From sequence record NC_054918.1: a DNA stretch of 64,000 bases; one strand, given 5' to 3'. Below are positions 4,662 through 60,540 of the stretch, piece by piece. Source of the DNA: Escherichia phage vB_EcoM_G4498. Numbering within the stretch: position 1 is the first letter of the stretch; each line of letters opens with the position of its first letter. Made by a program: the position numbers and the translations under genes. The notes under the pieces are model-generated. The model was not told the DNA's origin and made no database searches. It saw only the letters and a program-made list of their open reading frames with translations.

Positions 4662-5225
4662 TTATTTACATAGTTTAGTTATTATAGCTTCTGCAGCAGC
4701 TTTTAGCTTAGATGCGGTGTTAATACGATTTTTAATTTCAGTATATGCATCGCCAAGAACATCAAGGCTATCAGAATAAACACTTACACTATTGCGTTCG
4801 CTATTTGAAATAGAACCTTTAGTTTTACGATCAAAATCGGTATACACGTCTTGAAGATCGCGGGCTGCCTTCTTTGCATCATCCAATGCATCAAGAGCTT
4901 TATTCAAAGCATTGACATATTTTTTAGTGTCAAACATATTCTTAGAAATTTTAACAGGTGCACGTTCAGGAGTAGCTAATGCAGATTTAGAAACCTGAGC
5001 GCCAGATGCCAATTTCTTAGAAATTTTGAAAAATGCTTTATTGAAACTATTTTCTTGGCTCATCGTAAAAGAACTGTTATCGATGTTATACATTTCAATA
5101 GCTTTAGCTTTCCACTTAAGAAAATCGCCCCGGTCTTTTGGGTCCAAGTGGAAGAATACTTTAGTAAGATCTGCTTCAGATGGTAATTTTGCTGCTTCAG
5201 TTAAAAATTCGGCATAGGTTTTCAT
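4662..5225 (-). CDS. Internal protein-like (capsid-targeted), 187 aa
   Basis: ATG start; N-terminus MKTYAEFLTEA matches the CTS motif; own terminator downstream. Confidence 0.7.
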   Translation of the reverse strand: MKTYAEFLTEAAKLPSEADLTKVFFHLDPKDRGDFLKWKAKAIEMYNIDNSSFTMSQENSFNKAFFKISKKLASGAQVSKSALATPERAPVKISKNMFDTKKYVNALNKALDALDDAKKAARDLQDVYTDFDRKTKGSISNSERNSVSVYSDSLDVLGDAYTEIKNRINTASKLKAAAEAIITKLCK

Positions 5226-5635: not shown

Positions 5636-5986
5636 TTAATATTCTTTTAAAGCATCAATCTGTTCACGGCGTTTACGCCATAAATCAATTGCTTCATACG
5701 CGGATTCAGCATTTCGAATTAGCCGGCATTTATGTAAAGACTTATGATTTTGATATTGCGTAAATAACGAAATTTTATCTAAAAGGTCTTTACGATCAAA
5801 ATATTCGTAACCATCTAAACCAAATGAACGATTTTTGAGAAATTGCCAATGACCATATTCGTTTTCGACATAAACATAATCTGCATGCTGATAAAGTAAA
5901 TTAATTACACGTTCAGAAATAACAGTATCGTTATGATTAAAATAGAATGTTAAATCATGAACTACTAAATAGACATTACCTTTCAT
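5636..5986 (-). CDS. Hypothetical protein, about 116 aa
   Basis: track start at 6034 would overlap tRNA-Arg; internal ATG at 5984-5986 has GAGGAAAAT RBS. Confidence 0.5.
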   Translation of the reverse strand: MKGNVYLVVHDLTFYFNHNDTVISERVINLLYQHADYVYVENEYGHWQFLKNRSFGLDGYEYFDRKDLLDKISLFTQYQNHKSLHKCRLIRNAESAYEAIDLWRKRREQIDALKEY

Positions 5987-6004
5987 ATTTTCCTCACTTA
6001 TAAT

Positions 6005-6081
<77 letters not shown>

Positions 6082-6085
6082 TATT

Positions 6086-6160
6086 TGGCGGACGTGATAG
6101 GATTCGAACCTATAACCAATCGCTTAACAGGCGATCGCTCTGCCATTGAGCTACACATCC
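6086..6160 (-). tRNA. tRNA-Asn (anticodon GTT)
   Basis: anticodon arm ATCGC-CTGTTAA-GCGAT; T-loop GGTTCGAATCC; encoded CCA. Confidence 0.8.
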
Positions 6161-6164
6161 AAAT

Positions 6165-6251
6165 TGGTGGGGAGCGATGGAGTCGAACCACCCGAGTCGC
6201 AATGACAATGGATTTACAGTCCACACCGCTACCTCTACGGGATAACTCCCC
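6165..6251 (-). tRNA. tRNA-Tyr (anticodon GTA), long variable arm
   Basis: 87 nt; anticodon arm GTGGA-CTGTAAA-TCCAT; acceptor GGGGAGT/GCTCCCC; encoded CCA. Confidence 0.8.
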
Positions 6252-6260
6252 TAATTAATT

Positions 6261-6335
6261 TGGTGGCCCTGGGTGGAATTGAACCACCATCTGGCGATTA
6301 TGAGTCGCTTGCTTGAACCTTCCAGCTACAGGGCC
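6261..6335 (-). tRNA. tRNA with CAT anticodon (Met or lysidine-modified Ile)
   Basis: anticodon loop CTCATAA; acceptor GGCCCTG/CAGGGCC; encoded CCA. Confidence 0.8.
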
Positions 6336-6336
6336 T

Positions 6337-6412
6337 TGGTGCTGATTGACGGAATCGAACCGCCGACCTTCTCATTACAAGTGAGTTGCTCTACCTACTG
6401 AGCTAAATCAGC
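6337..6412 (-). tRNA. tRNA-Thr (anticodon TGT)
   Basis: anticodon loop CTTGTAA; T-loop GGTTCGATTCC; encoded CCA. Confidence 0.85.
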
Positions 6413-6417
6413 AAAAC

Positions 6418-6507
6418 TGGCGGAGGCGATAGGATTTGAACCTATGAGTCGCCGGAGCGACTGCCGGTTTTCAAGACCGGTGCATTAAACCACTCTGCCA
6501 CGCCTCC
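6418..6507 (-). tRNA. tRNA-Ser (anticodon TGA), long variable arm
   Basis: 90 nt; anticodon arm CCGGT-CTTGAAA-ACCGG; encoded CCA. Confidence 0.85.
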
Positions 6508-6509
6508 AG

Positions 6510-6583
6510 TCTCCGTGACAGGATTTGAACCTACGACATTCTGCTCCCAAAGCAGACGCTCTACCAAACTGAGCTACACGGAG
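6510..6583 (-). tRNA. tRNA-Pro (anticodon TGG), CCA not encoded
   Basis: anticodon arm TCTGC-TTTGGGA-GCAGA; abuts tRNA-Ser as in the T4 Pro-Ser dimeric precursor. Confidence 0.85.
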
Positions 6584-6593
6584 TAAATTAAAT

Positions 6594-6668
<75 letters not shown>

Positions 6669-6672
6669 AATT

Positions 6673-6759
6673 TGGTGCGAGAAGTGGGACTCGAACCCAC
6701 AAGGAAATCATTCCGCAGCATTTTAAGTGCTGTGCCTTTACCAATTTGACCATTCTCGC
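6673..6759 (-). tRNA. tRNA-Leu (anticodon TAA), long variable arm
   Basis: 87 nt; anticodon arm CAGCA-CTTAAAA-TGCTG; encoded CCA. Confidence 0.85.
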
Positions 6760-6760
6760 G

Positions 6761-6834
6761 CTGGGAATAAAGGACTCGAACCTTTGCATCCTGGAATCAA
6801 AATCCAGTGCCTTACCAACTTGGCTAATTCCCAA
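6761..6834 (-). tRNA. tRNA-Gln (anticodon TTG), CCA not encoded
   Basis: anticodon loop TTTTGAT; acceptor TGGGAAT/ATTCCCA; 1 nt from tRNA-Leu (dimeric precursor arrangement). Confidence 0.85.
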
Positions 6835-7875: not shown

Positions 7876-8100
7876 TTATTCAACACCAGCGGCTTTCAAA
7901 AGTTTCTTAAGATTGGCAACACCTTGAGCAGAAAATGTGACCTTTCCACCTTTTTCACTGATAGAACCAACCAATTTAGCAAGTTTATCATTAGGAATTT
8001 TTTTAAAATCAGCCAATGTCCCATCAAAGGTTTTTGAAACAAAAGGCAGTTCATCTTCATGTCTTTTAGCTTCTACAATAAATTTTTGATATGTTTCCAT
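7876..8100 (-). CDS. Internal protein-like (capsid-targeted), about 74 aa
   Basis: N-terminus METYQKFIVEA from ATG 8098-8100; alternative ATG at 8112 adds METK. Confidence 0.6.
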   Translation of the reverse strand: METYQKFIVEAKRHEDELPFVSKTFDGTLADFKKIPNDKLAKLVGSISEKGGKVTFSAQGVANLKKLLKAAGVE

Positions 8101-8137
8101 TTTAGTTTCCATTTAGATGTTTTGTTTTGATAGGGTA

Positions 8138-8167
8138 ATAATATCACTACCCCATCTAAAAGTAAAC
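8138..8167 (-). promoter_or_regulatory. T4 early-type promoter (GTTTAC, 18 nt spacer, TATTAT) with conserved leader
   Basis: minus strand GTTTAC (8162-8167) and TATTAT (8138-8143). Confidence 0.55.
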
Positions 8168-8177
8168 GGTTTATAAA

Positions 8178-8486
8178 CTATTTTATTCCGCGTGATGCAA
8201 TTGTGTTCTGCCGTTTAACGCCAGTTTGTTTAAAGTCATGATTGTCGATTTGATCGGTACGAGCAACTCCGAATGATGATTTGATTTTAGCCTTAGATCC
8301 TTTAGTTATAGAAATAAACATCTCGGAAGCCCCTTTCTTAAAGTCCGAGGCGATTACTTCAACGCCGTTCTTAGCAAGTGACTTCAGAATTGCCTCTGCA
8401 TACTCATCGTCAAGACTCGTCTGAGTATTAATAACGAATGTCTTTGGCGCAGCCGCTTCATTGATAAATTCTTTAAATGTTTTCAT
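8178..8486 (-). CDS. Internal protein-like (capsid-targeted), 102 aa
   Basis: ATG start; N-terminus MKTFKEFINEA. Confidence 0.7.
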   Translation of the reverse strand: MKTFKEFINEAAAPKTFVINTQTSLDDEYAEAILKSLAKNGVEVIASDFKKGASEMFISITKGSKAKIKSSFGVARTDQIDNHDFKQTGVKRQNTIASRGIK

Positions 8487-8517
8487 TTTTATTTTCCTAA
8501 TTAATTTTGATGAGATA

Positions 8518-8547
8518 ATAGTACCACAACCCTATTTAAAAGTAAAC
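8518..8547 (-). promoter_or_regulatory. T4 early-type promoter (GTTTAC, 18 nt spacer, TACTAT)
   Basis: minus strand GTTTAC (8542-8547) and TACTAT (8518-8523). Confidence 0.5.
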
Positions 8548-8820
8548 TCATTTTAAATAAATTGCGTATTTTTTATAACCCGCTGACTCATGACGAAGAC
8601 CATTATCATTAGCAAAACGCTCAATGTTGTTAATTTGATTCTGGTCAAGTTCAGAGATGTCAAACACGAAAAAGTTACGTTTGTTACCAACTGTTACATA
8701 GTCAGTTAAATCAATATCATATAGGTAATTGATGTCAGCAATCAAAGTCTTGACAGCTTTGCTAATTTTTACTTTTTCGTTAAAAGCAGCTTCAGCAATA
8801 AATTCTTGATACGTTTTCAT
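8548..8820 (-). CDS. Internal protein-like (capsid-targeted), about 90 aa
   Basis: track start at 8838 is GTG; ATG at 8818-8820 gives MKTYQEFIAEA. Confidence 0.7.
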   Translation of the reverse strand: MKTYQEFIAEAAFNEKVKISKAVKTLIADINYLYDIDLTDYVTVGNKRNFFVFDISELDQNQINNIERFANDNGLRHESAGYKKYAIYLK

Positions 8821-8856
8821 TTTATTCTCCAATTTCACATTTGTTTTGATAGGGTA

Positions 8857-12910: not shown

Positions 12911-14621
12911 TAACCTTAATTGGTTTGTTGGTGTTGTTGAAGATAGAATGGACCCATTAAAATTAGGTCGTGTTCGTGTTCGTGTGGTTGGTCTGCATCC
13001 ACCTCAAAGAGCACAAGGTGATGTAATGGGTATTCCAACTGAAAAATTACCATGGATGTCAGTTATTCAACCTATAACTTCTGCAGCAATGTCAGGAATT
13101 GGAGGTTCTGTTACAGGGCCAGTAGAAGGAACTAGAGTTTATGGTCATTTTTTAGACAAATGGAAAACTAACGGAATTGTCCTTGGCACGTATGGTGGAA
13201 TAGTTCGCGAAAAACCGAATAGACTTGAAGGATTTTCTGACCCAACTGGGCAGTATCCTAGACGTTTAGGAAATGATACTAACGTACTAAACCAAGGCGG
13301 AGAAGTAGGATATGATTCCTCTTCTAACGTTATTCAAGATAGTAACTTAGACACCGCAATAAATCCCGATGATAGACCACTATCAGAGATTCCAACCGAT
13401 GATAATCCAAATATGTCAATGGCTGAAATGCTTCGCCGTGATGAAGGATTAAGATTAAAAGTTTATTGGGATACCGAAGGATATCCGACAATTGGTATTG
13501 GTCATCTTATCATGAAACAGCCAGTTCGTGATATGGCTCAAATTAATAAAGTTTTATCAAAACAAGTTGGTCGTGAAATTACTGGAAACCCAGGTTCTAT
13601 TACGATGGAAGAGGCGACGACTTTATTTGAGCGTGATTTGGCTGATATGCAACGTGACATTAAATCACATTCTAAAGTAGGACCAGTCTGGCAAGCTGTC
13701 AACCGTTCTCGTCAAATGGCGTTAGAAAATATGGCATTTCAGATGGGTGTTGGTGGTGTAGCTAAATTTAACACAATGTTAACTGCTATGTTAGCAGGAG
13801 ATTGGGAAAAAGCATATAAAGCCGGTCGTGATTCATTGTGGTATCAACAAACAAAAGGCCGTGCATCCCGTGTTACTATGATTATTCTTACGGGAAATTT
13901 GGAATCATACGGTGTTGAAGTGAAAACTCCAGCTAGGTCTCTATCGGCAATGGCTGCTACTGTAGCTAAATCTTCTGACCCGGCTGATCCTCCTATTCCA
14001 AATGACTCGAGAATTTTATTCAAAGAACCAGTTTCTTCATATAAAGGTGAATATCCATATGTTCACACAATGGAAACTGAAAGCGGTCATATTCAAGAAT
14101 TTGATGATACCCCTGGGCAAGAACGATACAGATTAGTTCATCCAACTGGAACTTATGAAGAAGTATCACCGTCAGGAAGAAGAACAAGAAAAACTGTTGA
14201 TAATTTGTATGATATAACCAACGCTGATGGTAATTTTTTGGTAGCCGGTGATAAAAAGACTAACGTCGGTGGATCAGAAATTTATTACAACATGGATAAT
14301 CGTCTTCACCAAATAGATGGAAGCAATACAATATTTGTACGTGGCGACGAAACTAAGACGGTTGAAGGTAATGGAACTATTCTAGTTAAAGGTAATGTTA
14401 CTATTGTAGTTGAAGGCAATGCTGACATTACAGTTAAAGGAGATGCTACCACTTTAGTTGAAGGAAATCAAACTAATACAGTAAATGGAAATCTTTCTTG
14501 GAAAGTTGCTGGGACAGTTGATTGGGACGTTGGTGGTGATTGGACAGAAAAAATGGCATCTATGAGTTCTATTTCATCTGGTCAATACACAATTGATGGA
14601 TCGAGGATTGACATTGGCTAA
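12894..14621 (+). CDS. 5: Baseplate central spike / tail lysozyme gp5
   Basis: 575 aa; internal lysozyme domain MAEMLRRDEGLRLKVYWDTEGYPTIGIGHL paralogous to e. Confidence 0.95.
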   Translation: MEMISNNLNWFVGVVEDRMDPLKLGRVRVRVVGLHPPQRAQGDVMGIPTEKLPWMSVIQPITSAAMSGIGGSVTGPVEGTRVYGHFLDKWKTNGIVLGTYGGIVREKPNRLEGFSDPTGQYPRRLGNDTNVLNQGGEVGYDSSSNVIQDSNLDTAINPDDRPLSEIPTDDNPNMSMAEMLRRDEGLRLKVYWDTEGYPTIGIGHLIMKQPVRDMAQINKVLSKQVGREITGNPGSITMEEATTLFERDLADMQRDIKSHSKVGPVWQAVNRSRQMALENMAFQMGVGGVAKFNTMLTAMLAGDWEKAYKAGRDSLWYQQTKGRASRVTMIILTGNLESYGVEVKTPARSLSAMAATVAKSSDPADPPIPNDSRILFKEPVSSYKGEYPYVHTMETESGHIQEFDDTPGQERYRLVHPTGTYEEVSPSGRRTRKTVDNLYDITNADGNFLVAGDKKTNVGGSEIYYNMDNRLHQIDGSNTIFVRGDETKTVEGNGTILVKGNVTIVVEGNADITVKGDATTLVEGNQTNTVNGNLSWKVAGTVDWDVGGDWTEKMASMSSISSGQYTIDGSRIDIG

Positions 14622-14655: not shown

Positions 14656-15150
14656 ATGGAAGGTTCTTCTATCGACGTCACCTTTACCGCTCAATTAGAA
14701 ACAGGTGAAACGTTAGTATCTATAAATATAACTAGTTACGAAGAAACTCCTGGAGTTTCAGTAGAAGAAAATCGCTTATATGGAACGTATGAATCTGTAT
14801 TTGGATTTGGAAATGACGCATTGAAATATCGTTTAGATGATGAATTTAAAACTGCTGCTTCATGGGAAGACCTTCCAACTGATTCTAATACTCAGTTATA
14901 TTTATGGAAAGCTCCTCAAAACCTCCAGAAGACATTCACTTATGAAGTAACATTAATATATGACTACCAAGAACAAAGTGAATCTGGAGGTTCTGGCAGT
15001 AATTCTAGGTCATCTTCTGATACTACTGAACCAACCGATCCTCCAGCTCCAATAAGAAAAACCCTTGTTAAAAATTACACAAAAACTATAGTTGGAAATT
15101 GGAGTCGTTGGGCTAATAAATTGAGAAGCTATGTATATGAGAGGCCATAA
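14656..15150 (+). CDS. Hypothetical protein downstream of gene 5 (5.1-like), about 164 aa
   Basis: ATG at 14656 preceded by TAGGAGAA RBS; track start at 14593 overlaps gene 5. Confidence 0.65.
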
Positions 15151-15444
15151 ATGTCAGGATTAAGTTATGATAAGTGTGTTACTGCTGGCCATGAAGCGTG
15201 GCCTCCAACAGTTGTGAATGCTACACAAAGCAAAGTATTCACTGGAGGAATTGCTGTTCTAGTAGCAGGCGATCCAATTACAGAACATACAGAAATTAAA
15301 AAGCCATATGAAACACATGGCGGAGTGACACAACCTAGAACTTCTAAGGTATATGTCACTGGAAAGAAAGCTGTTCAAATGGCTGATCCAATATCATGTG
15401 GTGATACTGTGGCTCAGGCATCATCTAAAGTATTCATTAAATAG
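15151..15444 (+). CDS. 5.4: PAAR-repeat spike tip protein gp5.4
   Basis: 97 aa Gly-rich protein directly after gene 5 / 5.1. Confidence 0.85.
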
Positions 15445-40851: not shown

Positions 40852-40866
40852 TCTTTGACGATTTAA

Positions 40867-40895
40867 GGGACCTTCGGGTCCCTTTAGTTGTTTTT
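40867..40895 (+). terminator. Intrinsic terminator after gene 23
   Basis: GGGACC-TTCG-GGTCCC hairpin followed by TTTAGTTGTTTTT. Confidence 0.7.
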
Positions 40896-40899
40896 ATGG

Positions 40900-40907
40900 T
40901 ATAAATA
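40900..40907 (+). promoter_or_regulatory. T4 late promoter TATAAATA (gene 24)
   Basis: exact TATAAATA about 28 nt upstream of the gene 24 ATG. Confidence 0.65.
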
Positions 40908-40934
40908 AATCATATAAACTGAAAGGAAAGCGCA

Positions 40935-43261: not shown

Positions 43262-43540
43262 TCAAAATGTAATTTCTAACCAATCACCATCACGCTGATC
43301 ACTATTGACTTTAAAGCTGAATCCTTCTTTTCTCAGCCAATCACCAATTTCTTCAGTAATCAATTTATCACGAGCAATACAATAATAACTAAAATGTGTT
43401 TTACCTTGTTCAGCTGCTTTATTAGCAAGTTCCGAAAAATCTTTAATAAAACACTCTAGCTTAAACTGTTTACTTTTAAGTGCTTTTTCGCGCAATTGAT
43501 TAGCAAAAGATTCATTTTCATAAAGATCATACTGTTCCAT
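43262..43540 (-). CDS. Hypothetical protein, 92 aa (24.2 position)
   Basis: ORF between rnlB and hoc. Confidence 0.65.
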   Translation of the reverse strand: MEQYDLYENESFANQLREKALKSKQFKLECFIKDFSELANKAAEQGKTHFSYYCIARDKLITEEIGDWLRKEGFSFKVNSDQRDGDWLEITF

Positions 43541-43742
43541 TTTTCACCTTTTTATTGATATGTCTTTTTCTATAGACGACTTTTTCTCGAGTTTCAAATT
43601 TATTTTTAGCAGTCATAGCTCGAGCCCATAATACAGCCACTTCTTTTGCCTGTAAGTTTAATTCACGAGCAATTTCAATGAATGACTTTCCAGACTCATG
43701 AAGAGTAAACACCACAACCTCAGTTCTCATAATCAATCTCAT
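43527..43742 (-). CDS. Hypothetical small basic protein, 71 aa (24.3 position)
   Basis: ORF; possible helix-turn-helix SFIEIARELNLQAKEV. Confidence 0.6.
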   Translation of the reverse strand: MRLIMRTEVVVFTLHESGKSFIEIARELNLQAKEVAVLWARAMTAKNKFETREKVVYRKRHINKKVKNGTV

Positions 43743-43810
43743 GTTATCGAGTTGGTGCCATTATATACATCATTTTCTGATTGTGTTTTGTGTGCTTTCA
43801 AAATGAAGAA

Positions 43811-43826
43811 AGGGGCCGAAGCCCCT
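43811..43826 (-). terminator. Terminator after hoc (AGGGGC-CGAA-GCCCCT plus U-rich run)
   Basis: GC hairpin downstream of the hoc stop with T-rich run on the minus strand. Confidence 0.6.
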
Positions 43827-43831
43827 TATGA

Positions 43832-45250
43832 TTATGGATAGGTATAGATGATACCAGTTTCTAAAGCAGTTTTATGAATGATGTATCCATTACGCGATTC
43901 TTGAACATCAACTTCTGGATAGTCTTTCATCATCTTCTGAAGAGTGTAACGATGTAGGTAATATTTACTATCTGGGTCGTCAGTTTTCCAATCTTTACCT
44001 TCTTCGGTCATTTTTTGGATTTCATCCATAACCCACCAACCGCACCAGATATAAGCTGAAGTACGATGTGGAAGAGGATGAACATAAGGTAGTTCACCTT
44101 CTGGTTCTGGAGCAACTTTATCAGTTACCTGAACTTGACCTTCTGCTGTAATAGTTTTGCTATCGTAATCAGTTGCAGTAACGACAGCAGTAACTTCAAT
44201 AGTTTGACTTCCAACAGATGAGGTATCGACAGTATATACGTTAGTTGACCCTTCTACAGGAGAAGAATCTTTCTTCCATGAGTAAGTAATTTGTGCTTCT
44301 TCTGGAGCACCCGTAACATTAGCCGTAAATGTAGCCGAAGCATCTTGCTGAACATTAATAGAAGGAGGAGTCAATGTAACCTGTGGATTCATTGTCTTCT
44401 TATTAACTGTCAATGATACTTCATTAGAAGTAACTTCCTTTTCATTGTAATTTTCAGCAGTTACTTGGGCTACGCATTTAATTCTTTTTACTCCACTTGT
44501 AGTTGGAGTATAGCTAAATGTAGAGTTAGTTTCTCCACCAACTTGTGAATCATCTACATACCACTGATACGTAGCAGACGCTCCATCAGGTTGAGAAGCT
44601 AAGGCAGCAGTAAATTGAACTGGGGTTCCGATTACTCCCGCTGGAGGACTATCAGGAGTTACTGCCAAAGTAGTTGTCTGCGTCTTTTTATTAACAGTCA
44701 GTGACACTTCATTGGAAGTAACTTCCTTTGTATCATAATCTGTCGCGGTTACTTGAGCTACGCACTTAATTGTTTTAACTCCGCTTGCGTCAGGAGTGTA
44801 ATTGAATGTAGTGCTAGTTGCTTCGCCCACAGGAGAACCGTCAACGTACCATTGATACGTAGCGTTTGCACCTGATGGCTGTGAAGCTAAGGCAGCGGTA
44901 AATTCAATTGGAGTTCCAATCACTCCAGCATCAGGGCTACCAGGAGTTACTGCCAAAGTAGTTGTTTGTGTCTTATTTTGAACTGTGATAGTTGTACTAA
45001 TTTCAGCTGTTTCAGGTTCAGATTCTGCAACTTGATTGGTTGCAACTACTTTAATAGTCTTTTGACCGGCAGGTCCTTTTAGTACATAACTAAAAGTTGC
45101 TGACGTTTCTTCCTGTGGAGCGTCGTCTACAGTCCAAGCATATGTAATAGTTCCGCCTCCAGTTTCACCACTGGGTGTAGCAGTAAACTGCTTAGTTTCA
45201 TCAATAACCCCTGTCGGTGTTTTAGGAGTTATATCAACTGTAAAAGTCAT
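43832..45250 (-). CDS. hoc: Highly immunogenic outer capsid protein Hoc, four Ig-like domains
   Basis: 472 aa; repeated about 96-aa Ig-like units plus C-terminal capsid-binding region; position between 24.3 and inh. Confidence 0.88.
   Translation of the reverse strand: MTFTVDITPKTPTGVIDETKQFTATPSGETGGGTITYAWTVDDAPQEETSATFSYVLKGPAGQKTIKVVATNQVAESEPETAEISTTITVQNKTQTTTLAVTPGSPDAGVIGTPIEFTAALASQPSGANATYQWYVDGSPVGEATSTTFNYTPDASGVKTIKCVAQVTATDYDTKEVTSNEVSLTVNKKTQTTTLAVTPDSPPAGVIGTPVQFTAALASQPDGASATYQWYVDDSQVGGETNSTFSYTPTTSGVKRIKCVAQVTAENYNEKEVTSNEVSLTVNKKTMNPQVTLTPPSINVQQDASATFTANVTGAPEEAQITYSWKKDSSPVEGSTNVYTVDTSSVGSQTIEVTAVVTATDYDSKTITAEGQVQVTDKVAPEPEGELPYVHPLPHRTSAYIWCGWWVMDEIQKMTEEGKDWKTDDPDSKYYLHRYTLQKMMKDYPEVDVQESRNGYIIHKTALETGIIYTYP
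44399..44974 (-). repeat. Tandem in-frame duplication of an Ig-like domain unit in hoc (two units of 288 bp)
   Basis: protein residues about 93-188 and 189-284 both read QTTTLAVTP...SNEVSLTVNKKT with roughly 85 percent identity. Confidence 0.75.
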
Positions 45251-45259
45251 AAGTTATCC

Positions 45260-45940
45260 TTATTTTAATGTTACGAAAGAAGAGTTGCGTGTTTCACGAA
45301 TTAGAACTGATCCGTCACGGTTAATGTAATAAATTAAGCTAAATAAAGTTTGGTGTGCTGACGCATGTTCAAAACTAGTTGGGTGAGATTTCCAATCAGG
45401 AGTTTCAGCAATCCATTGATAAATCCACCAAGGAACAGTACAGAATCCTGGATTTTTTCCAATCAACTGAAGATTCGGGCTAAAGTTTTCCGGAAGAGTA
45501 AATACAGACGGCTTTTCAGATTCAATAATCTCAGCTACAGCCTGTTCAAATTTTTCTTCAACAAATGGAGTATCTTCAATCAAAACATCGGTATTTTCAG
45601 GAATTTTATCTGTTTCTACTACTTCAATTTTAATGTCAGATTTAACCGGAGAATCAATCAAAAGTGCTGCTTCTGGATTGACTTCTTCATCGTCATATTT
45701 TAACCCCTCTGCAGCATCAGCAGCATCAATTAAGTCTTTAATAGATAACCCATCAGTCTCCGGCATAGGTTCACTAGCGAGCTTCTGGAGAGCTTCTTCA
45801 ATATCATTAACGATATTATCAAAAGATTTATTCTTTTTGACCTTTATACCAAACTGTTCAGCATATTCAGCTAATTTAGCTTTAGCTTCTTTATTATCAT
45901 CAAGAGCCTTCAGCTCTGCAATATAATCTTTATCTATCAT
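45260..45940 (-). CDS. inh: Inhibitor of prohead protease (Inh)
   Basis: 226 aa; synteny hoc-inh-uvsW. Confidence 0.85.
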   Translation of the reverse strand: MIDKDYIAELKALDDNKEAKAKLAEYAEQFGIKVKKNKSFDNIVNDIEEALQKLASEPMPETDGLSIKDLIDAADAAEGLKYDDEEVNPEAALLIDSPVKSDIKIEVVETDKIPENTDVLIEDTPFVEEKFEQAVAEIIESEKPSVFTLPENFSPNLQLIGKNPGFCTVPWWIYQWIAETPDWKSHPTSFEHASAHQTLFSLIYYINRDGSVLIRETRNSSFVTLK

Positions 45941-45961: not shown

Positions 45962-45990
45962 TAGATATATTTATTACATGGTATTTAGAC

Positions 45991-47502
45991 ATGACTGACA
46001 TTAAAGTACATTTTTATGATTTTAGTCACGTGAGAATTGATTGCGAAGAAAGTACATTTCATGAACTCCGTGATTTCTTTAGCTTTGAAGCTGATGGGTA
46101 TCGTTTTAATCCGAAGTACAAATATGGCCACTGGGATGGACGAATTCGTCTTTTAGATTATAATCGCCTTCTTCCATTCGGTTTAGTCGGGCAAATTAAA
46201 AAGTTCTGCGATAACTTTGGCTATAAAGCCTGGATTGACCCACAGATTAACGAAAAAGAAGAATTATCAAGAAAAGATTTTGATGAATGGCTTTCTAAAT
46301 TAGAAATCTATTCAGGAAATAAAAGAATTGAACCGCATTGGTATCAAAAAGATGCAGTGTTCGAAGGATTAGTTAATCGTCGTAGAATTCTTAATCTTCC
46401 AACATCCGCTGGTAAATCGTTAATTCAAGCTTTGCTTGCGCGATATTATTTGGAAAATTATGAAGGTAAAATTCTTATCATTGTTCCAACAACTGCTCTA
46501 ACAACTCAGATGGCTGATGACTTCGTTGACTATCGTTTATTCAGTCATGCAATGATAAAGAAAATTGGTGGCGGAGCATCAAAAGATGATAAATATAAAA
46601 ATGATGCACCAGTCGTTGTTGGTACATGGCAAACTGTAGTAAAACAACCGAAAGAATGGTTCTCACAGTTTGGAATGATGATGAATGATGAATGCCATCT
46701 TGCTACAGGAAAAAGTATTTCATCTATCATATCAGGTTTAAATAACTGCATGTTCAAATTTGGTCTATCTGGTTCATTACGTGATGGCAAAGCCAATATC
46801 ATGCAGTATGTTGGAATGTTTGGTGAAATATTTAAGCCAGTAACGACTTCTAAGTTAATGGAAGATGGACAAGTAACTGAGCTAAAAATTAATAGTATTT
46901 TTCTTCGCTATCCCGATGAGTTCACTACTAAATTAAAGGGAAAAACTTATCAAGAAGAAATAAAAATTATTACGGGGCTTAGTAAAAGAAATAAATGGAT
47001 CGCTAAATTGGCTATTAAGCTTGCACAAAAAGATGAAAACGCTTTTGTCATGTTTAAACATGTATCACATGGTAAAGCTATTTTCGATTTAATTAAAAAT
47101 GAATACGATAAAGTTTATTACGTATCAGGGGAAGTTGATACCGAAACCCGCAATATAATGAAAACCTTAGCTGAAAATGGTAAAGGAATAATTATAGTAG
47201 CTAGTTATGGTGTATTTTCTACTGGTATTTCAGTTAAAAATCTGCATCACGTTGTTTTAGCGCACGGTGTTAAATCAAAAATCATTGTATTACAAACAAT
47301 CGGTCGTGTATTACGTAAGCATGGTTCTAAAACAATCGCAACAGTCTGGGACCTCATAGATGACTGTGGTGTCAAGCCAAAATCTGCTAATACTAAAAAG
47401 AAATATGTTCACTTGAACTATCTTTTAAAACACGGCATTGATCGTATTCAGCGCTACGCAGATGAAAAATTTAATTACGTAATGAAAACAGTTAATTTAT
47501 AA
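45991..47502 (+). CDS. uvsW: UvsW RNA-DNA and DNA-DNA helicase
   Basis: 503 aa; helicase motif I PTSAGKS and DECH box. Confidence 0.95.
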   Translation: MTDIKVHFYDFSHVRIDCEESTFHELRDFFSFEADGYRFNPKYKYGHWDGRIRLLDYNRLLPFGLVGQIKKFCDNFGYKAWIDPQINEKEELSRKDFDEWLSKLEIYSGNKRIEPHWYQKDAVFEGLVNRRRILNLPTSAGKSLIQALLARYYLENYEGKILIIVPTTALTTQMADDFVDYRLFSHAMIKKIGGGASKDDKYKNDAPVVVGTWQTVVKQPKEWFSQFGMMMNDECHLATGKSISSIISGLNNCMFKFGLSGSLRDGKANIMQYVGMFGEIFKPVTTSKLMEDGQVTELKINSIFLRYPDEFTTKLKGKTYQEEIKIITGLSKRNKWIAKLAIKLAQKDENAFVMFKHVSHGKAIFDLIKNEYDKVYYVSGEVDTETRNIMKTLAENGKGIIIVASYGVFSTGISVKNLHHVVLAHGVKSKIIVLQTIGRVLRKHGSKTIATVWDLIDDCGVKPKSANTKKKYVHLNYLLKHGIDRIQRYADEKFNYVMKTVNL

Positions 47503-56407: not shown

Positions 56408-58465
56408 CTACATCTTGAACTTTTTAGACATTCCGTTGATGTTAACCAAAGAAGCTAAGATTTGAGAAACTTCGTTTTCCTCTTCTTTTGATTCTTCTAC
56501 AAGGAATTGATTAAATCCAGCCATTGGACGAACTTCACCAGTTTCCATTAGATGGTCGCCATCATATACTGATTCTTCTAATTGTTCAGAAGGAGGAACG
56601 ATTGTACCTTCGATTAGATACTTGTTATAAGCAGTTTCTTTCATAAAGTAAGTACTTACTTTATTAATCTTCAGTAAAATTCCACGTGGTAGAATAACTT
56701 CAGCTTCTGACGGAAATCCTGATAAATGACCCGGAACGATAACTTTGATTCGCTCAGCTCCTTTAATTACCATACCCACGCTAGTTTCAGCATCTTCATT
56801 AGCATATGTAGAATGACTACCCATATGCATCAAATCTTCTGCATCAACGGAACCTTCTCCTTCACCAGAAAATACTGCGCCGGAATCATCTAGAGCCATA
56901 TAGTTTTTACCATGCTCACCGAAGATATTTGGTTTAAGCGATGTGGATACGAAGTTCTTGAAATAGAACATTTTATTTTCAATGTTATGACGCAAAGTTT
57001 TAAAGGTAACTTCTTGTCCACGGTAAAGTGTAGTTCCTGGAGGAAGAACTGAACCTTTAGCGAATGCAGAATCAAGCGTCTCAATATGTTTAATAGCTCG
57101 TTCCATATATTCTTCACGGGTAGAATCTGGTTTACCCAAAAGGAACGAGTTCATTTCAACATATGAATCTGCACAATAATCTTCAATTACATCAGATTCA
57201 GCTTGAGTTAATCCTTTTGGAGTTACTTCAGTGCTTGCGTATTCATATGCCTGAGCAGCAGATTCATTAATCAATTTATAAATGCCATTCATGACAAATT
57301 GAATAATAGCTGTCTTTTCATCTGGCGTAGCTTTAGAACCTTTAACCAAATCATTGATAATTTTCTTAATAACATCAAAGCTATTAGAAATATTAATATC
57401 AGCAAGATCGCTTAAAATTTTATCAGTCTTATAATCAAAGAATTCTTTATTCTTTAAATATTCTTGAGAACCTTGATATGTTATATCGCTCTGTAACTTG
57501 ATAGATGGATCACGTAAACGTGCATGGGCTAATGCAATATGATTTCGGAAGCTTTCGAGTTCATAATCACTAGATTTAAAACGAGAAGCGCTTCTCATAC
57601 CGCCTATAGCTCCTTTGCTGAAGTTTGAACCAATTTGAATAACGCCAGAGTTCATTGGTCCTTCTGCTTTATACACCGGAACTTTAGATTCAAACTCTTG
57701 ATATTTCTTAGCAGCGAAGCTATCACCCTGAAGTGAAGCATCAACAGTAGAATATTGAGCTTGTGCTGCTAATCGACGACTAATTTTAGTTTTCTGAATA
57801 ACAGCTTGGTCCGTGCGCTTATCATTTTCTAAAGCAATAGAAGCAGCAACAGCAACAGCTTTAGGAACAGCATTACCTGTTTTAACATCTACATAAACAT
57901 CACCAACCTTTGATTCAACTTTTGTGAATAACTCAGTTGAAATAGGAGGTACACCTGGAATGTCTTCTAAATTGGCATTTTTACGATAAACCATAATATA
58001 TGCGTACTTTTTATCATAATCCCAGATTTCCTTTAAAAGAACATATCGACCTGCTCCTTTAGTACGTACTAAACGGTCAGCAATAACTTGCATTTGACGA
58101 GCAGCGCCATTTGTTTTACTCTTTAGTACGCGGAATAAGCATGCATCAATTTTATACTGTTTCATTGTTTGAAGAGCAGTATCAAAAACAGCGTTAATGA
58201 CGCCAATTGGATTTCCACCCAAGTTTCTAAGTTTAACCAGTGATAATTTCTCGTTGACACCTATCATTACGATATGCATCATTTTATCGCCCGGCTTAAC
58301 GTTTTTATTTGTATCACCTCCAGAGGTGTATGTACAAAATCTAAATCCAGGAAGCACGCTTTCTTCGCCGGCTTGAATAGCAAAAATTTGAGGTATTTTA
58401 TGCTTAGGATTTAAGTTAACAACCGGCGCCGAAGCGCCGTCAAATAATTCTGTAATAAGTTCCAT
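56408..58465 (-). CDS. Alt-like ADP-ribosyltransferase paralog, 685 aa
   Basis: shares N-terminal MELITELFD and overall length with the adjacent Alt; R-S-E signature (TLYRGQ, FVSTSL, SEAEVILP). Confidence 0.85.
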   Translation of the reverse strand: MELITELFDGASAPVVNLNPKHKIPQIFAIQAGEESVLPGFRFCTYTSGGDTNKNVKPGDKMMHIVMIGVNEKLSLVKLRNLGGNPIGVINAVFDTALQTMKQYKIDACLFRVLKSKTNGAARQMQVIADRLVRTKGAGRYVLLKEIWDYDKKYAYIMVYRKNANLEDIPGVPPISTELFTKVESKVGDVYVDVKTGNAVPKAVAVAASIALENDKRTDQAVIQKTKISRRLAAQAQYSTVDASLQGDSFAAKKYQEFESKVPVYKAEGPMNSGVIQIGSNFSKGAIGGMRSASRFKSSDYELESFRNHIALAHARLRDPSIKLQSDITYQGSQEYLKNKEFFDYKTDKILSDLADINISNSFDVIKKIINDLVKGSKATPDEKTAIIQFVMNGIYKLINESAAQAYEYASTEVTPKGLTQAESDVIEDYCADSYVEMNSFLLGKPDSTREEYMERAIKHIETLDSAFAKGSVLPPGTTLYRGQEVTFKTLRHNIENKMFYFKNFVSTSLKPNIFGEHGKNYMALDDSGAVFSGEGEGSVDAEDLMHMGSHSTYANEDAETSVGMVIKGAERIKVIVPGHLSGFPSEAEVILPRGILLKINKVSTYFMKETAYNKYLIEGTIVPPSEQLEESVYDGDHLMETGEVRPMAGFNQFLVEESKEEENEVSQILASLVNINGMSKKFKM

Positions 58466-58468
58466 GAT

Positions 58469-60517
58469 TTATCCTTGAACGAACTTGTAAGGCATGTTTG
58501 TAATATCTATGCAAGACGCAATAATTCCAAGAGATGATTCTACTTTCTGTTTAACATTTGATGAAACAAATGATGCAAAGTCAACTCTATCTTCTATATC
58601 ACCTGTCATTGTAACTACTTCGCCGGTTTCCATTAAACGGTCACCGTCATAAATTACTGATTCGGTGAGTTCTTCGGTGGTCATAACTTCAGCTTGAATA
58701 AGCTTGTTGTTAGTTTTGACTGTTCCATCATTGTAAGATGCATCAGTTATTTTATTAACTTTGACCATTAATCCACGTGGCAAAATGACTTCCATTTCAT
58801 TTGAAGGCGCTAAACTTCCACCGGGTAAAACAACATTGACTTTATCAGCCCCAGTAATAACCCATCCAATTCCGACTAAATTATCGCTAGAATTAACAAG
58901 CCCTTCATCATTTTTATCGATAGAAATGTTTAGACGCTTTTCATCTGGTAAAACACCAACAGCTGAATCAGTCATCCAAGTACCAAAAATGTTTGGATAT
59001 AATGATGTTGATACAAAATTTCTAAAATAAAAAACTCGATTTTTTACCATTGCTTCGTATATTGAAGGTAACATTCGTTGTGAACGATACAAAGTAATAC
59101 CTTTTGGTAATCGTTCACCATTTTTAAAGGCTGAATCTAAATTATCAATAGCTTTTTCTATGTCAGATGCTGTCAAAATACTTGTACGCTCATCTGGATT
59201 ATATAATCCCAAAAGAGCATTATTTATGTCTACATATCCTGAACCTACGTATTCACGAATTCCGCGTTTTTGTGCTGGTGTGTATTTAGATGAATCTTTA
59301 TTTTCGACTATAGGATGTAATGACCATCCAGCTGTAAGAGCATATCCACGTAATTCTCTTCGAATAATCTTTGTTTTTATTGCATTCCAAGAATTTTGTA
59401 CTAACTCATTTGCAGCATCTTGGTTTAAATGCGAATGTTTGTTAATATTTCTTTCAAACCAAGCACCTTTATATTTTTCTAAAGTATCATCGACGATAGA
59501 AGCAATAGTTTCTAAAGTTTTTATTGAAGTAATAGATTCTTTTCGTAATTTTTCTAAAGCTTTATTTTTTATTTCTGCATTAATAATGGATTCTTTATCT
59601 TCAGGAATTATAGAAGCTTCTCTGAATGCCATCCCAGCTGTAACACTGCTAAGAGCATTCTCTAGTGCAAATCCTGAAGTAGAAATTACCGTTAATTCAT
59701 TAGAATCAGAAATTAAAGGCGCATCAGCGGGTTTATTTAATTCTGCTGCTGAAGCCTCAAATTTTTGAAACATCGGTGTTTCAAATCTAGAAGATTCCAA
59801 TGACTGACTTTGTGCAATTGCTCTACGGGAAATTTTAACTTTAACGATTACAGCTTGGTCAGAACGTTTATCATTTTCTTGTGCAATAGATGCTGCAATT
59901 GCCTCATTTTTGGTTACTTGAGCTCCGGTATCTTTATTGATATAAACATCACCGACCTTCGATTCAACTTTAGTAAAGAGCTCGGTACTAATTTCCGGAA
60001 CTCCTGGAATGTCTTCTAGTGATACATTTTTGCGATGTATAAGAATATATGCATACTTTTTATCATAATCCCAGAGTTCCTTAAGAAGGACGTATCTGCC
60101 ACCTGAACGACTACGGATAAGTCTATCAGCAATAACTTGAATTTGTCGAGCTTGACCAGCGGTTTTAGACTTAAGAATACGAAGCATACAAGCATCAATT
60201 TTATACTGACGCATTGTTTGCATTGCAACAGTAAAAACTGAATTGATATAATTAATTGGGCTTGGACCAAGACCTTTTAATTTAGCAATTGAACCTTTAG
60301 CGGTTAATGTAAAAGGAACAATATGCATCATTTTATCGCCCATTTTTAAATCGCGATTAGTATCACCTCCAGATGTATAGGTACATAAACGAAAGCCTGG
60401 TTGTTCAATTGCATCATCAACATGAACTGAAAAAATTTGCGGTATTTTCTTCTTTGGATTTAAGTTTGTAATCGGAAGAGTAGTATCTTCGTCAAATAAT
60501 TCTGTAATAAGTTCCAT
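58469..60517 (-). CDS. alt: Alt ADP-ribosyltransferase (capsid-packaged), 682 aa
   Basis: R-S-E signature (TLYRSQ, FVSTSL, NEMEVILP); late promoter upstream; second ATG chosen for RBS spacing. Confidence 0.88.
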   Translation of the reverse strand: MELITELFDEDTTLPITNLNPKKKIPQIFSVHVDDAIEQPGFRLCTYTSGGDTNRDLKMGDKMMHIVPFTLTAKGSIAKLKGLGPSPINYINSVFTVAMQTMRQYKIDACMLRILKSKTAGQARQIQVIADRLIRSRSGGRYVLLKELWDYDKKYAYILIHRKNVSLEDIPGVPEISTELFTKVESKVGDVYINKDTGAQVTKNEAIAASIAQENDKRSDQAVIVKVKISRRAIAQSQSLESSRFETPMFQKFEASAAELNKPADAPLISDSNELTVISTSGFALENALSSVTAGMAFREASIIPEDKESIINAEIKNKALEKLRKESITSIKTLETIASIVDDTLEKYKGAWFERNINKHSHLNQDAANELVQNSWNAIKTKIIRRELRGYALTAGWSLHPIVENKDSSKYTPAQKRGIREYVGSGYVDINNALLGLYNPDERTSILTASDIEKAIDNLDSAFKNGERLPKGITLYRSQRMLPSIYEAMVKNRVFYFRNFVSTSLYPNIFGTWMTDSAVGVLPDEKRLNISIDKNDEGLVNSSDNLVGIGWVITGADKVNVVLPGGSLAPSNEMEVILPRGLMVKVNKITDASYNDGTVKTNNKLIQAEVMTTEELTESVIYDGDRLMETGEVVTMTGDIEDRVDFASFVSSNVKQKVESSLGIIASCIDITNMPYKFVQG

Positions 60518-60540
60518 CATAGCCTCTCTAGTGTTTATTC

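Follow-up and report, generated by a model that had tools for sequence, protein, structure and literature searches.

The analysed window, a 64,000-nucleotide stretch of Escherichia phage vB_EcoM_G4498 (NC_054918.1; hereafter G4498), is collinear with positions 66.2–129 kb of the T4 genome in a blastn map, and its sequence assigns G4498 to the T4-type phages of the genus Tequatrovirus. Across the 24 kb surrounding the hoc gene, identity to G4498 amounts to 99.3% for Escherichia phages G29 and G4500 and to 99.1% for Salmonella phage UAB_60. The gene order rnlB, 24.2, 24.3, hoc, inh, uvsW is common to G4498 and T4; hoc is carried on the strand opposite to that of the late head genes 20–24, and its position between inh and 24.3/24.2/rnlB is conserved. 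The locus comprises the following features:

45260..45940, minus strand: inh (226 aa), the upstream neighbour of hoc, an open reading frame positioned as T4 inh and serving as a synteny anchor
43832..45250, minus strand: hoc coding sequence, 472 aa plus stop, supported by the open reading frame list, by a phmmer match to T4 Hoc and by identical deposited genes
43810..43827, minus strand: terminator-like GC-rich hairpin followed by a T run, directly 3' of the hoc stop codon, identified by a consensus scan
43527..43742, minus strand: counterpart of T4 24.3 (71 aa), the downstream neighbour, an open reading frame with a phrog_1566 match, placed as in the T4 gene order and serving as a second synteny anchor

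A terminator is also annotated at the equivalent post-hoc position in phages D5505 and G29.

The deduced G4498 Hoc protein, whose N-terminus reads MTFTVDITPK, matched T4 Hoc (5vf3_Z, 376 aa) with an E-value of 1.7e-222 in a phmmer search against PDB sequences. The alignment consists of two collinear pieces, in which residues 1–114 of G4498 Hoc correspond to T4 residues 1–114 and residues 189–472 to T4 residues 93–376, and the G4498 protein is longer than that of T4 by exactly 96 residues, inserted at domain 2. The genes measure 1419 bp in G4498 and 1131 bp in T4 (NC_000866), and the protein lengths given in the original prediction, i.e., 472 aa as opposed to 376 aa in T4, thus agree with the open reading frame, with 5vf3_Z and with the T4 gene. 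Sequence, synteny and the conservation of capsid-binding residues identify the gene as hoc. The likeness to T4 Hoc (PDB 5vf3, 8t1x) extends to the gene, the locus, the collinear N-terminus, domains 1 and 3 and the capsid-binding domain, whereas domain 2, which occurs once in T4 Hoc, occurs twice in that of G4498. The features within the gene, of which the two domain 2 copies are termed units A and B, are as follows:

44975..45250, minus strand: Ig-like domain 1 (aa 1–92), aligning to T4 residues 1–92 and predicted by AlphaFold2 as a beta-sandwich with pLDDT around 90
44687..44974, minus strand: repeat unit A (aa 93–188), the upstream copy of Ig-like domain 2 and the one more diverged from T4 domain 2 (dS 0.89), defined by Tandem Repeats Finder, a repeat search and the codon register
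44941..44965, minus strand: unit A copy of the longest stretch identical between the units (25 nt), within which the deletion crossover of phages ESCO58 and APTC-EC-2A falls
44399..44686, minus strand: repeat unit B (aa 189–284), the downstream copy of Ig-like domain 2 and the closer counterpart of T4 domain 2 (dS 0.27), aligning to T4 residues 93–188
44653..44677, minus strand: unit B copy of the same 25-nt stretch, from the comparison of the two units
44123..44398, minus strand: fourth Ig-like domain (aa 285–376), equivalent to T4 domain 3, aligning to T4 residues 189–280, with Pfam Ig_3 and I-set matches at 289–373 and AlphaFold2 strands at 290–376
43832..44122, minus strand: C-terminal capsid-binding domain (aa 377–472 plus stop), with 16 conserved T4 residues at an offset of +96

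Domain searches and structure prediction are in agreement with this arrangement. The Pfam PKD profile matched unit B at residues 195–267 with 44.8 bits (cut-off 23.5) and Ig_2 matched the repeat units with 30.3 bits (cut-off 27); the matches of PKD, Ig_2 and BiPBP_C to unit A include residues 123–177, while Ig_3 and I-set matched the last Ig domain just under their cut-offs. AlphaFold2, supplied with a shallow alignment of 30 closely homologous sequences, predicted four beta-sandwich modules with strand blocks at residues 4–91, 99–187, 194–283 and 290–376 and a pLDDT mostly above 90 over residues 1–376. The second and third of these blocks coincide with units A and B, each unit spanning precisely one Ig module and the linker attached to it. 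The top Foldseek matches in the PDB were four-Ig-domain fragments of Dscam1, Sidekick-2 and ICAM-5 (E about 1e-13). The C-terminal domain was modelled with low confidence (pLDDT below 50 for residues 381–472), and the capsid anchor was judged by residue conservation and the model kept out of considerations of whole-fibre geometry. All 16 T4 residues that were checked, i.e., Y293, H295, H299, R300, Y304, W306, W309, W310, D313 and Q354–Y360, the last of which contains the E355-S-R-N-G359 loop, are identical in G4498 at +96; these T4 Hoc residues contact gp23 or are conserved (Fokine et al. 2023, PMC10385173). Furthermore, the C-terminal 96 residues of the two proteins are only two nonsynonymous sites apart (dN 0.009). 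G4498 Hoc is therefore predicted to consist of four Ig-like domains and a conserved capsid-binding domain, as compared to three Ig-like domains in T4 Hoc, and the domain count that had been proposed from the G4498 sequence is upheld by the T4 alignment, Pfam, AlphaFold2 and Foldseek alike.

The additional domain resides in a tandem repeat, for which Tandem Repeats Finder reported a period of 288 and 2.0 copies at positions 44394–44974 (score 708), and a separate repeat search likewise returned two 288-nt copies at a spacing of 288 nt. The units are arranged head-to-tail and are of equal length, 288 bp or 96 codons, in frame and in register with the domain boundaries, and the boundaries originally proposed for them (44399–44686 and 44687–44974, approximately aa 93–188 and 189–284) proved exact in codon register. 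The same prediction had described near-identical copies sharing 80–85% of their DNA, which is too high: in codon register, 221 of the 288 nucleotides (76.7%) and 76 of the 96 amino acids (79.2%) are identical. This nevertheless lies far beyond chance, since codon-shuffled controls yielded 87 +/- 7.5 in-register matches with a maximum of 119 in 10,000, and comparison of unit A to unit B returned E-values of 2e-62 (blastn) and 2e-53 (blastp). The junction sequences are TVQNKTQTTTLAVTP between domain 1 and unit A, LTVNKKTQTTTLAVTP between units A and B, and LTVNKKTMNPQVTLTP between unit B and domain 3. The A/B junction is a hybrid in which the end of domain 2 is joined to its own start (SLTVNKK|TQTTTLAVTP), the form expected of a tandem duplication. 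By all of these measures, G4498 hoc holds T4 domain 2 as an in-frame tandem pair. The remaining Ig domains are 31–46% identical to each other and to units A and B, which suggests that the whole Ig string descends from older duplications and that A and B form its youngest pair.

It is scarcely conceivable that the repeat was wrongly expanded during assembly and that the true gene is of the 1131-bp, T4-like form. Assemblies can indeed be upset by repeats, and two related records bear marks at this very location, KNP5 containing a 990-N gap exactly at the hoc repeat and G29 having its coding sequence split by a direct duplication of 55 bp within unit A. Against this, 67 of the 288 positions distinguish the G4498 units, whose longest identical run is 25 nt, so that the arrangement cannot be produced by read reuse and the units can be told apart by short reads; the hoc reading frame is intact and both units are under purifying selection (see below). 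Moreover, a megablast search of 50,697 phage records, in which 677 matched G4498 hoc, returned 1419-bp genes that are 100% identical in Yersinia phage PYps5T and Salmonella phage UAB_60 and 99.8–99.9% identical in G9062, Ptacy1496 and JK23, obtained by independent laboratories from different hosts. The possibility of an assembly error that expanded or collapsed the repeat, which had been raised together with the original prediction, is thus rejected on the grounds of the 67 differences and of independent assemblies that agree to the base.

The frequency of the long gene was estimated from 60 rows taken at even steps down the ranking of the 677 matching records, 50 of which span the whole gene; this systematic sample is biased by sequencing effort towards E. 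coli phages, and its counts derive from match spans. A form of approximately 1419–1425 bp was found in 20 of these 50 full-length Tequatrovirus hits, for example in AR1, wV7, PST and phiD1, and a form of approximately 1131 bp in the other 30, among them T4, T2, T6 and RB10. Among the best 120 protein clusters, drawn from genomes and metagenomes, 79 are of 376 aa, 29 of 472 aa and eight of 568–570 aa, the last group including Escherichia phages UGKSEcP1 and UGKSEcP2, with three domain 2 units and five Ig-like domains. The four-Ig Hoc is consequently best regarded as an ordinary long form, which about one third or more of the sequenced relatives possess. The view that it marks a notable departure from T4-like phages does not hold, given that about 40% of the sampled Tequatrovirus records carry the 1419-bp gene, that identical genes have been deposited and that five-Ig forms exist; four domains are, as the 20 of 50 sampled hits indicate, common in T4-like phages.

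The units are, furthermore, of considerable age. Nei-Gojobori estimates for the A/B comparison were dS = 1.03 and dN = 0.137 (dN/dS = 0.13), with 40 of the 67 differences located at third codon positions, which places both units under purifying selection. In the comparison of G4498 with T4, dS amounts to 0.215 for domain 1, 0.267 for unit B against T4 domain 2, 0.227 for domain 3 and 0.135 for the C-terminal domain, while unit A against T4 domain 2 gives 0.89. Since dS between A and B is approximately 1.0, as opposed to 0.13–0.27 for the orthologous G4498/T4 segments, the A/B split is several times older than the split between the G4498 and T4 alleles.

These values bear directly on a recent, lineage-specific duplication that would set G4498 apart from T4-like phages, which is how the earlier description of the repeat would naturally be read. 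The 1131-bp length of the classical T4, T2, T6 and RB10 genes would suit such an event, yet it is highly improbable: the A/B divergence is four to eight times the orthologous G4498-versus-T4 dS, the long form occurs in about 40% of sampled records, including AR1, wV7, PST and phiD1, and among the closest relatives of G4498 the derived state is a one-unit form with an A/B chimeric unit. A young duplication was likewise not seen elsewhere, as none of the 30 four-Ig cluster representatives have units that are more than 85% identical. A recent duplication in G4498 was rejected on the dS comparison.

The chimeric one-unit form is best illustrated by ESCO58, whose hoc locus equals that of G4498 minus exactly 288 bp, leaving a 1131-bp gene. 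The two phages are identical over both 300-bp flanks, over domain 1 (276/276) and over domain 3 plus the C-terminal domain (567/567). Of the 67 diagnostic sites that tell A from B, the first two are in the A state in the single ESCO58 unit and the remaining 65 in the B state, and the unit has no change of its own. The crossover is confined to the 25-nt stretch ACAACTACTTTGGCAGTAACTCCTG, the longest run shared by A and B. APTC-EC-2A follows the ESCO58 pattern except for two substitutions, one in domain 1 and one in the unit, and the two loci are accordingly exact 288-bp deletion derivatives. In D5505, the single unit is of type A with a switch to B states close to its 3' end, and domain 3 and the C-terminal domain are 567/567 identical to those of G4498; a second deletion, independent of the first, would fit this pattern, if less cleanly than in ESCO58. 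All three phages are 99.1% identical to G4498 over the 24 kb around hoc. In the vicinity of G4498, the four-Ig gene is thus the parent and the three-Ig gene the derivative, the recent event being a loss and not a gain. The suggestion that the repeat acts as a recombination hotspot is therefore supported, at least as a recombination substrate, by the ESCO58 and APTC-EC-2A deletions, with a polarity that is the reverse of the gain originally implied.

A wider comparison likewise indicates that copy number does not represent a deep split in Hoc. The flanks of three-Ig proteins have a median identity of 97.5% to those of the nearest four- or five-Ig protein (17 of 79 reaching at least 99%), which equals the flank identity of four-Ig proteins among themselves. 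The position of a unit, in turn, is well preserved: among cluster representatives of multi-unit proteins, 36 of 37 first units are more similar to A and 38 of 38 second units to B, and the first unit of two is on average 88% identical to the first of three as against 80% to the second of two. Domain 2 units are therefore positional orthologues across two- and three-unit proteins. One-unit proteins include pure A and pure B types, A-to-B chimeras (P0070, P0080), a B-to-A chimera (P0019) and many complex mosaics, T4 Hoc among them. The ancestral state could not be read from simple A-to-B patterns of the one-unit alleles, most of these being complex mosaics relative to the A and B units of G4498. 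An account in terms of a single ancient duplication with positional orthology is thus a simplification, because the domain 2 units are heavily mosaic across the family and their history includes extensive recombination between alleles as well as gene conversion.

Recombination is very frequent among T-even phages, and the two units might alternatively have been brought together by unequal recombination during co-infection, joining an A-type and a B-type domain 2 from diverged one-unit hoc alleles. Such a heteroallelic origin would explain the high divergence of the units without requiring the two-unit state to be very old, and pure-A, pure-B and mosaic one-unit proteins all exist. We nonetheless consider it decidedly unlikely, as the positional orthology of first and second units extends across two- and three-unit proteins, and as the A-type unit of D5505 and the almost pure B units of ESCO58 and APTC-EC-2A lie, at the DNA level, between flanks identical to those of G4498, which marks these alleles as deletion products and not as independent old lineages. 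In-place duplication and heteroallelic joining would both yield the structure seen today, and extensive mosaicism makes it difficult to distinguish between them.

The reading that we prefer, and regard as very probably correct, is that G4498 carries an ordinary long hoc allele of Tequatrovirus in which domain 2 is present as two ancient, in-frame 96-codon units whose copy number is driven by recombination. According to this reading, domain 2 would have been duplicated long ago and both copies retained by purifying selection; the number of units would be polymorphic among close relatives, with one (376 aa), two (472 aa) or three (568 aa); and it would change through homologous recombination between units, as suggested by the precise one-unit deletions of the nearest relatives.

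Comparison with other Hoc proteins places this allele in a broader context. The 472-aa Hoc proteins of PYps5T, UAB_60, G9062, AR1, wV7, PST and phiD1 are identical in architecture to that of G4498, and those that are not identical in sequence differ from it by allelic mosaicism within the units. The 568–570-aa proteins of UGKSEcP1, UGKSEcP2 and metagenomic relatives possess the G4498-type domain 2 unit and junctions, with an A-like first and a B-like second unit, and differ by the presence of a third. Within an IMG/VR sister clade that is 35–62% identical to G4498 Hoc, lengths of 279–282, 367–377 and 471–472 aa occur, and in one member, L014 (471 aa, approximately 48% identical to G4498 Hoc), an offset-identity scan revealed that a different adjacent domain pair is 80% identical, which is interpreted as an independent duplication. 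It has previously been reported that Hoc homologues carry strings of one to ten Ig-like domains (PMC10385173) and that domain number differs among T4-like phages (PMC13435897). For example, the Hoc-like protein of Serratia phage Muldoon has ten Ig-like domains (PMC10385173) and that of Klebsiella phage PMBT63 one additional Ig-like domain (PMC13435897), while a natural domain-loss variant, the Hoc of phage PNJ-9, which lacks domain 3, has been characterized (PMC11853027). These three proteins share with G4498 Hoc a conserved C-terminal capsid anchor and a variable string of Ig modules, but they belong to other genera and have gained or lost other units.

The existence of the long allele is thus already known in the sense that it has been deposited many times and that variation in Hoc domain number has been published. 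Literature searches for the 472-aa Tequatrovirus form, or for a copy-number polymorphism or deletion mechanism within the genus, returned only general statements on variable domain number and the domain-loss variant, and the explicit one-, two- and three-unit polymorphism within Tequatrovirus, with its clean deletion derivatives, is considered mildly new.

With respect to function, the T4 Hoc fibre is present as one monomer per gp23 hexamer and has a roughly linear Ig string of 180 Å (PMC10385173). From the identity of its binding domain, G4498 Hoc would be expected to bind at the hexamer centre, forming a monomeric fibre whose C-terminal domain occupies the centre of each gp23 hexamer and whose Ig string projects outward; the extra domain would then lengthen the fibre by about one Ig module, some 40–45 Å in addition to the 180 Å of T4, an increase of about a quarter. 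Residues S183-L184-T185 in domain 2 of PNJ-9 Hoc are needed for binding to MUC2 (PMC11853027), and domains 2 and 3 of Hoc bind E. coli surfaces, as cited by Fokine et al. (PMC10385173). The S-L-T motif is present in both G4498 units (residues 183–185 and 279–281), such that the duplication adds a second copy of this domain 2 motif, which may influence mucin binding. By analogy with these systems, a changed reach, valency and mucus adherence of the four-Ig Hoc, as had been put forward for this gene, is plausible.

Alternatively, the number of domain 2 units might be a neutral length polymorphism with no measurable effect on adhesion or fitness, left to drift by the dispensability of Hoc and the recombination of its repeat. 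This is a serious alternative, possible if somewhat unlikely: Hoc is non-essential in the laboratory (PMC10385173), and forms with one, two or three units occur side by side in nearly identical backgrounds, as reflected by the median flank identity given above. Arguments against neutrality are, on the other hand, the low dN/dS of both units and the reported requirement for domain 2 residues in MUC2 binding by PNJ-9 (PMC11853027). Moreover, although one crossover suffices to delete a unit, the two-unit form has lasted until its copies reached a dS of about 1, and this points to its retention by selection in some settings. A more far-reaching proposal, which we put forward tentatively and consider rather unlikely, is that unit number (one, two or three) acts as a dial, quickly switched and open to selection, by which fibre length and glycan-binding valency are set. 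Selection would then have maintained two units over long periods, synonymous divergence of the units would have been favoured as limiting deletion to a few short identical stretches, and units would be lost and regained according to the niche, e.g., mucosal versus non-mucosal.

Hoc is the standard scaffold for display and vaccine applications of T4 and also underlies the ‘adherence to mucus’ model. While the value of the present observations as a discovery is small, their practical value is modest: users of T4-like therapeutic phages should be aware that Hoc occurs naturally with three, four or five Ig domains, and, since one crossover in the 25-nt stretch can turn a four-Ig into a three-Ig form, a given lysate may be mixed. 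Natural pairs of near-isogenic phages, i.e., G4498 or G4500 versus ESCO58 or APTC-EC-2A, exist and could be used for a comparison of mucin adherence.

A 471-aa Hoc is encoded by L014, an IMG/VR relative (IMGVR_UViG_2974546015_000001) from a sister clade that shares about 48% identity with the window Hoc. Two adjacent Ig-like domains of this protein, at residues about 186-370, match each other at 80% identity when offset by 94 aa. They are not the pair duplicated in the window Hoc, and they represent an independent tandem domain duplication. Hoc forms of 279-282 aa and 367-377 aa are also found in this sister clade. Longer proteins of 568-570 aa, represented by the Hoc clusters P0001-P0008 (e.g., those of Escherichia phages UGKSEcP1 and UGKSEcP2), possess three domain-2 units and five Ig-like domains. 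The third of these units is of a distinct type, which recurs as the second unit in some 472-aa proteins and as the sole unit in some 376-aa proteins.

The domain-2 repeat of hoc was also observed to be troublesome in two public records. In Shigella phage KNP5 (NC_055713.1), unit A is replaced by a gap of 990 N, the Hoc annotation covering only the 3' 588 bp, while Escherichia phage G29 (MK327940.1) carries a 55-bp direct duplication within unit A that breaks hoc into two CDSs.

Elsewhere in the window, comparison with T4 indicated that none of the four T4 GIY-YIG homing endonuclease genes of the region, i.e., segB, segC (with 5.3), segD and segE, is present.

Sites in the window at which T4 homing endonuclease genes are missing
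about 5637-6315, segB site, T4 gap of 845 bp
about 15147-15152, segC (with 5.3) site, T4 gap of 557 bp
about 40863-40922, segD site, T4 gap of 789 bp
about 45978-45996, segE site, T4 gap of 635 bp

The segB position is occupied by genes for tRNA-Asn and tRNA-Tyr, which are the two additions to the eight tRNA genes of T4 in a window cluster of ten (6005-6833, minus strand; Arg, Asn, Tyr, Met/Ile(CAT), Thr, Ser, Pro, Gly, Leu and Gln).

Two full-length genes for Alt-like RNA polymerase ADP-ribosyltransferases lie in tandem at 56408-58465 and 58469-60520 (both minus strand), encoding proteins of 685 and 683 aa that are 41% identical to each other, whereas T4 possesses at this locus a single alt gene and the short remnants alt.-1 and alt.-2. 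The T4 ipI and ipIII neighbourhoods are replaced or supplemented in the window by small ORFs (274-1000 and 7876-8838, both minus strand) with matches to PHROG families annotated as 'internal head/virion protein'; relative to T4, the window has insertions of 764 bp and 921 bp here. A further segment of 644 bp, near the rnaC/rnaD region and without a T4 counterpart at the same position, harbours a 187-aa ORF of unknown function (4662-5225, minus strand) that matches phrog_2280 (E = 3e-53). Finally, a tandem repeat with a period of 24/48 bp (14361-14492; 2.5-2.8 copies, 72-83% matches) sits within the stretch collinear with T4 gene 5, and presumably corresponds to the 8-residue repeat of the gp5 beta-helix.
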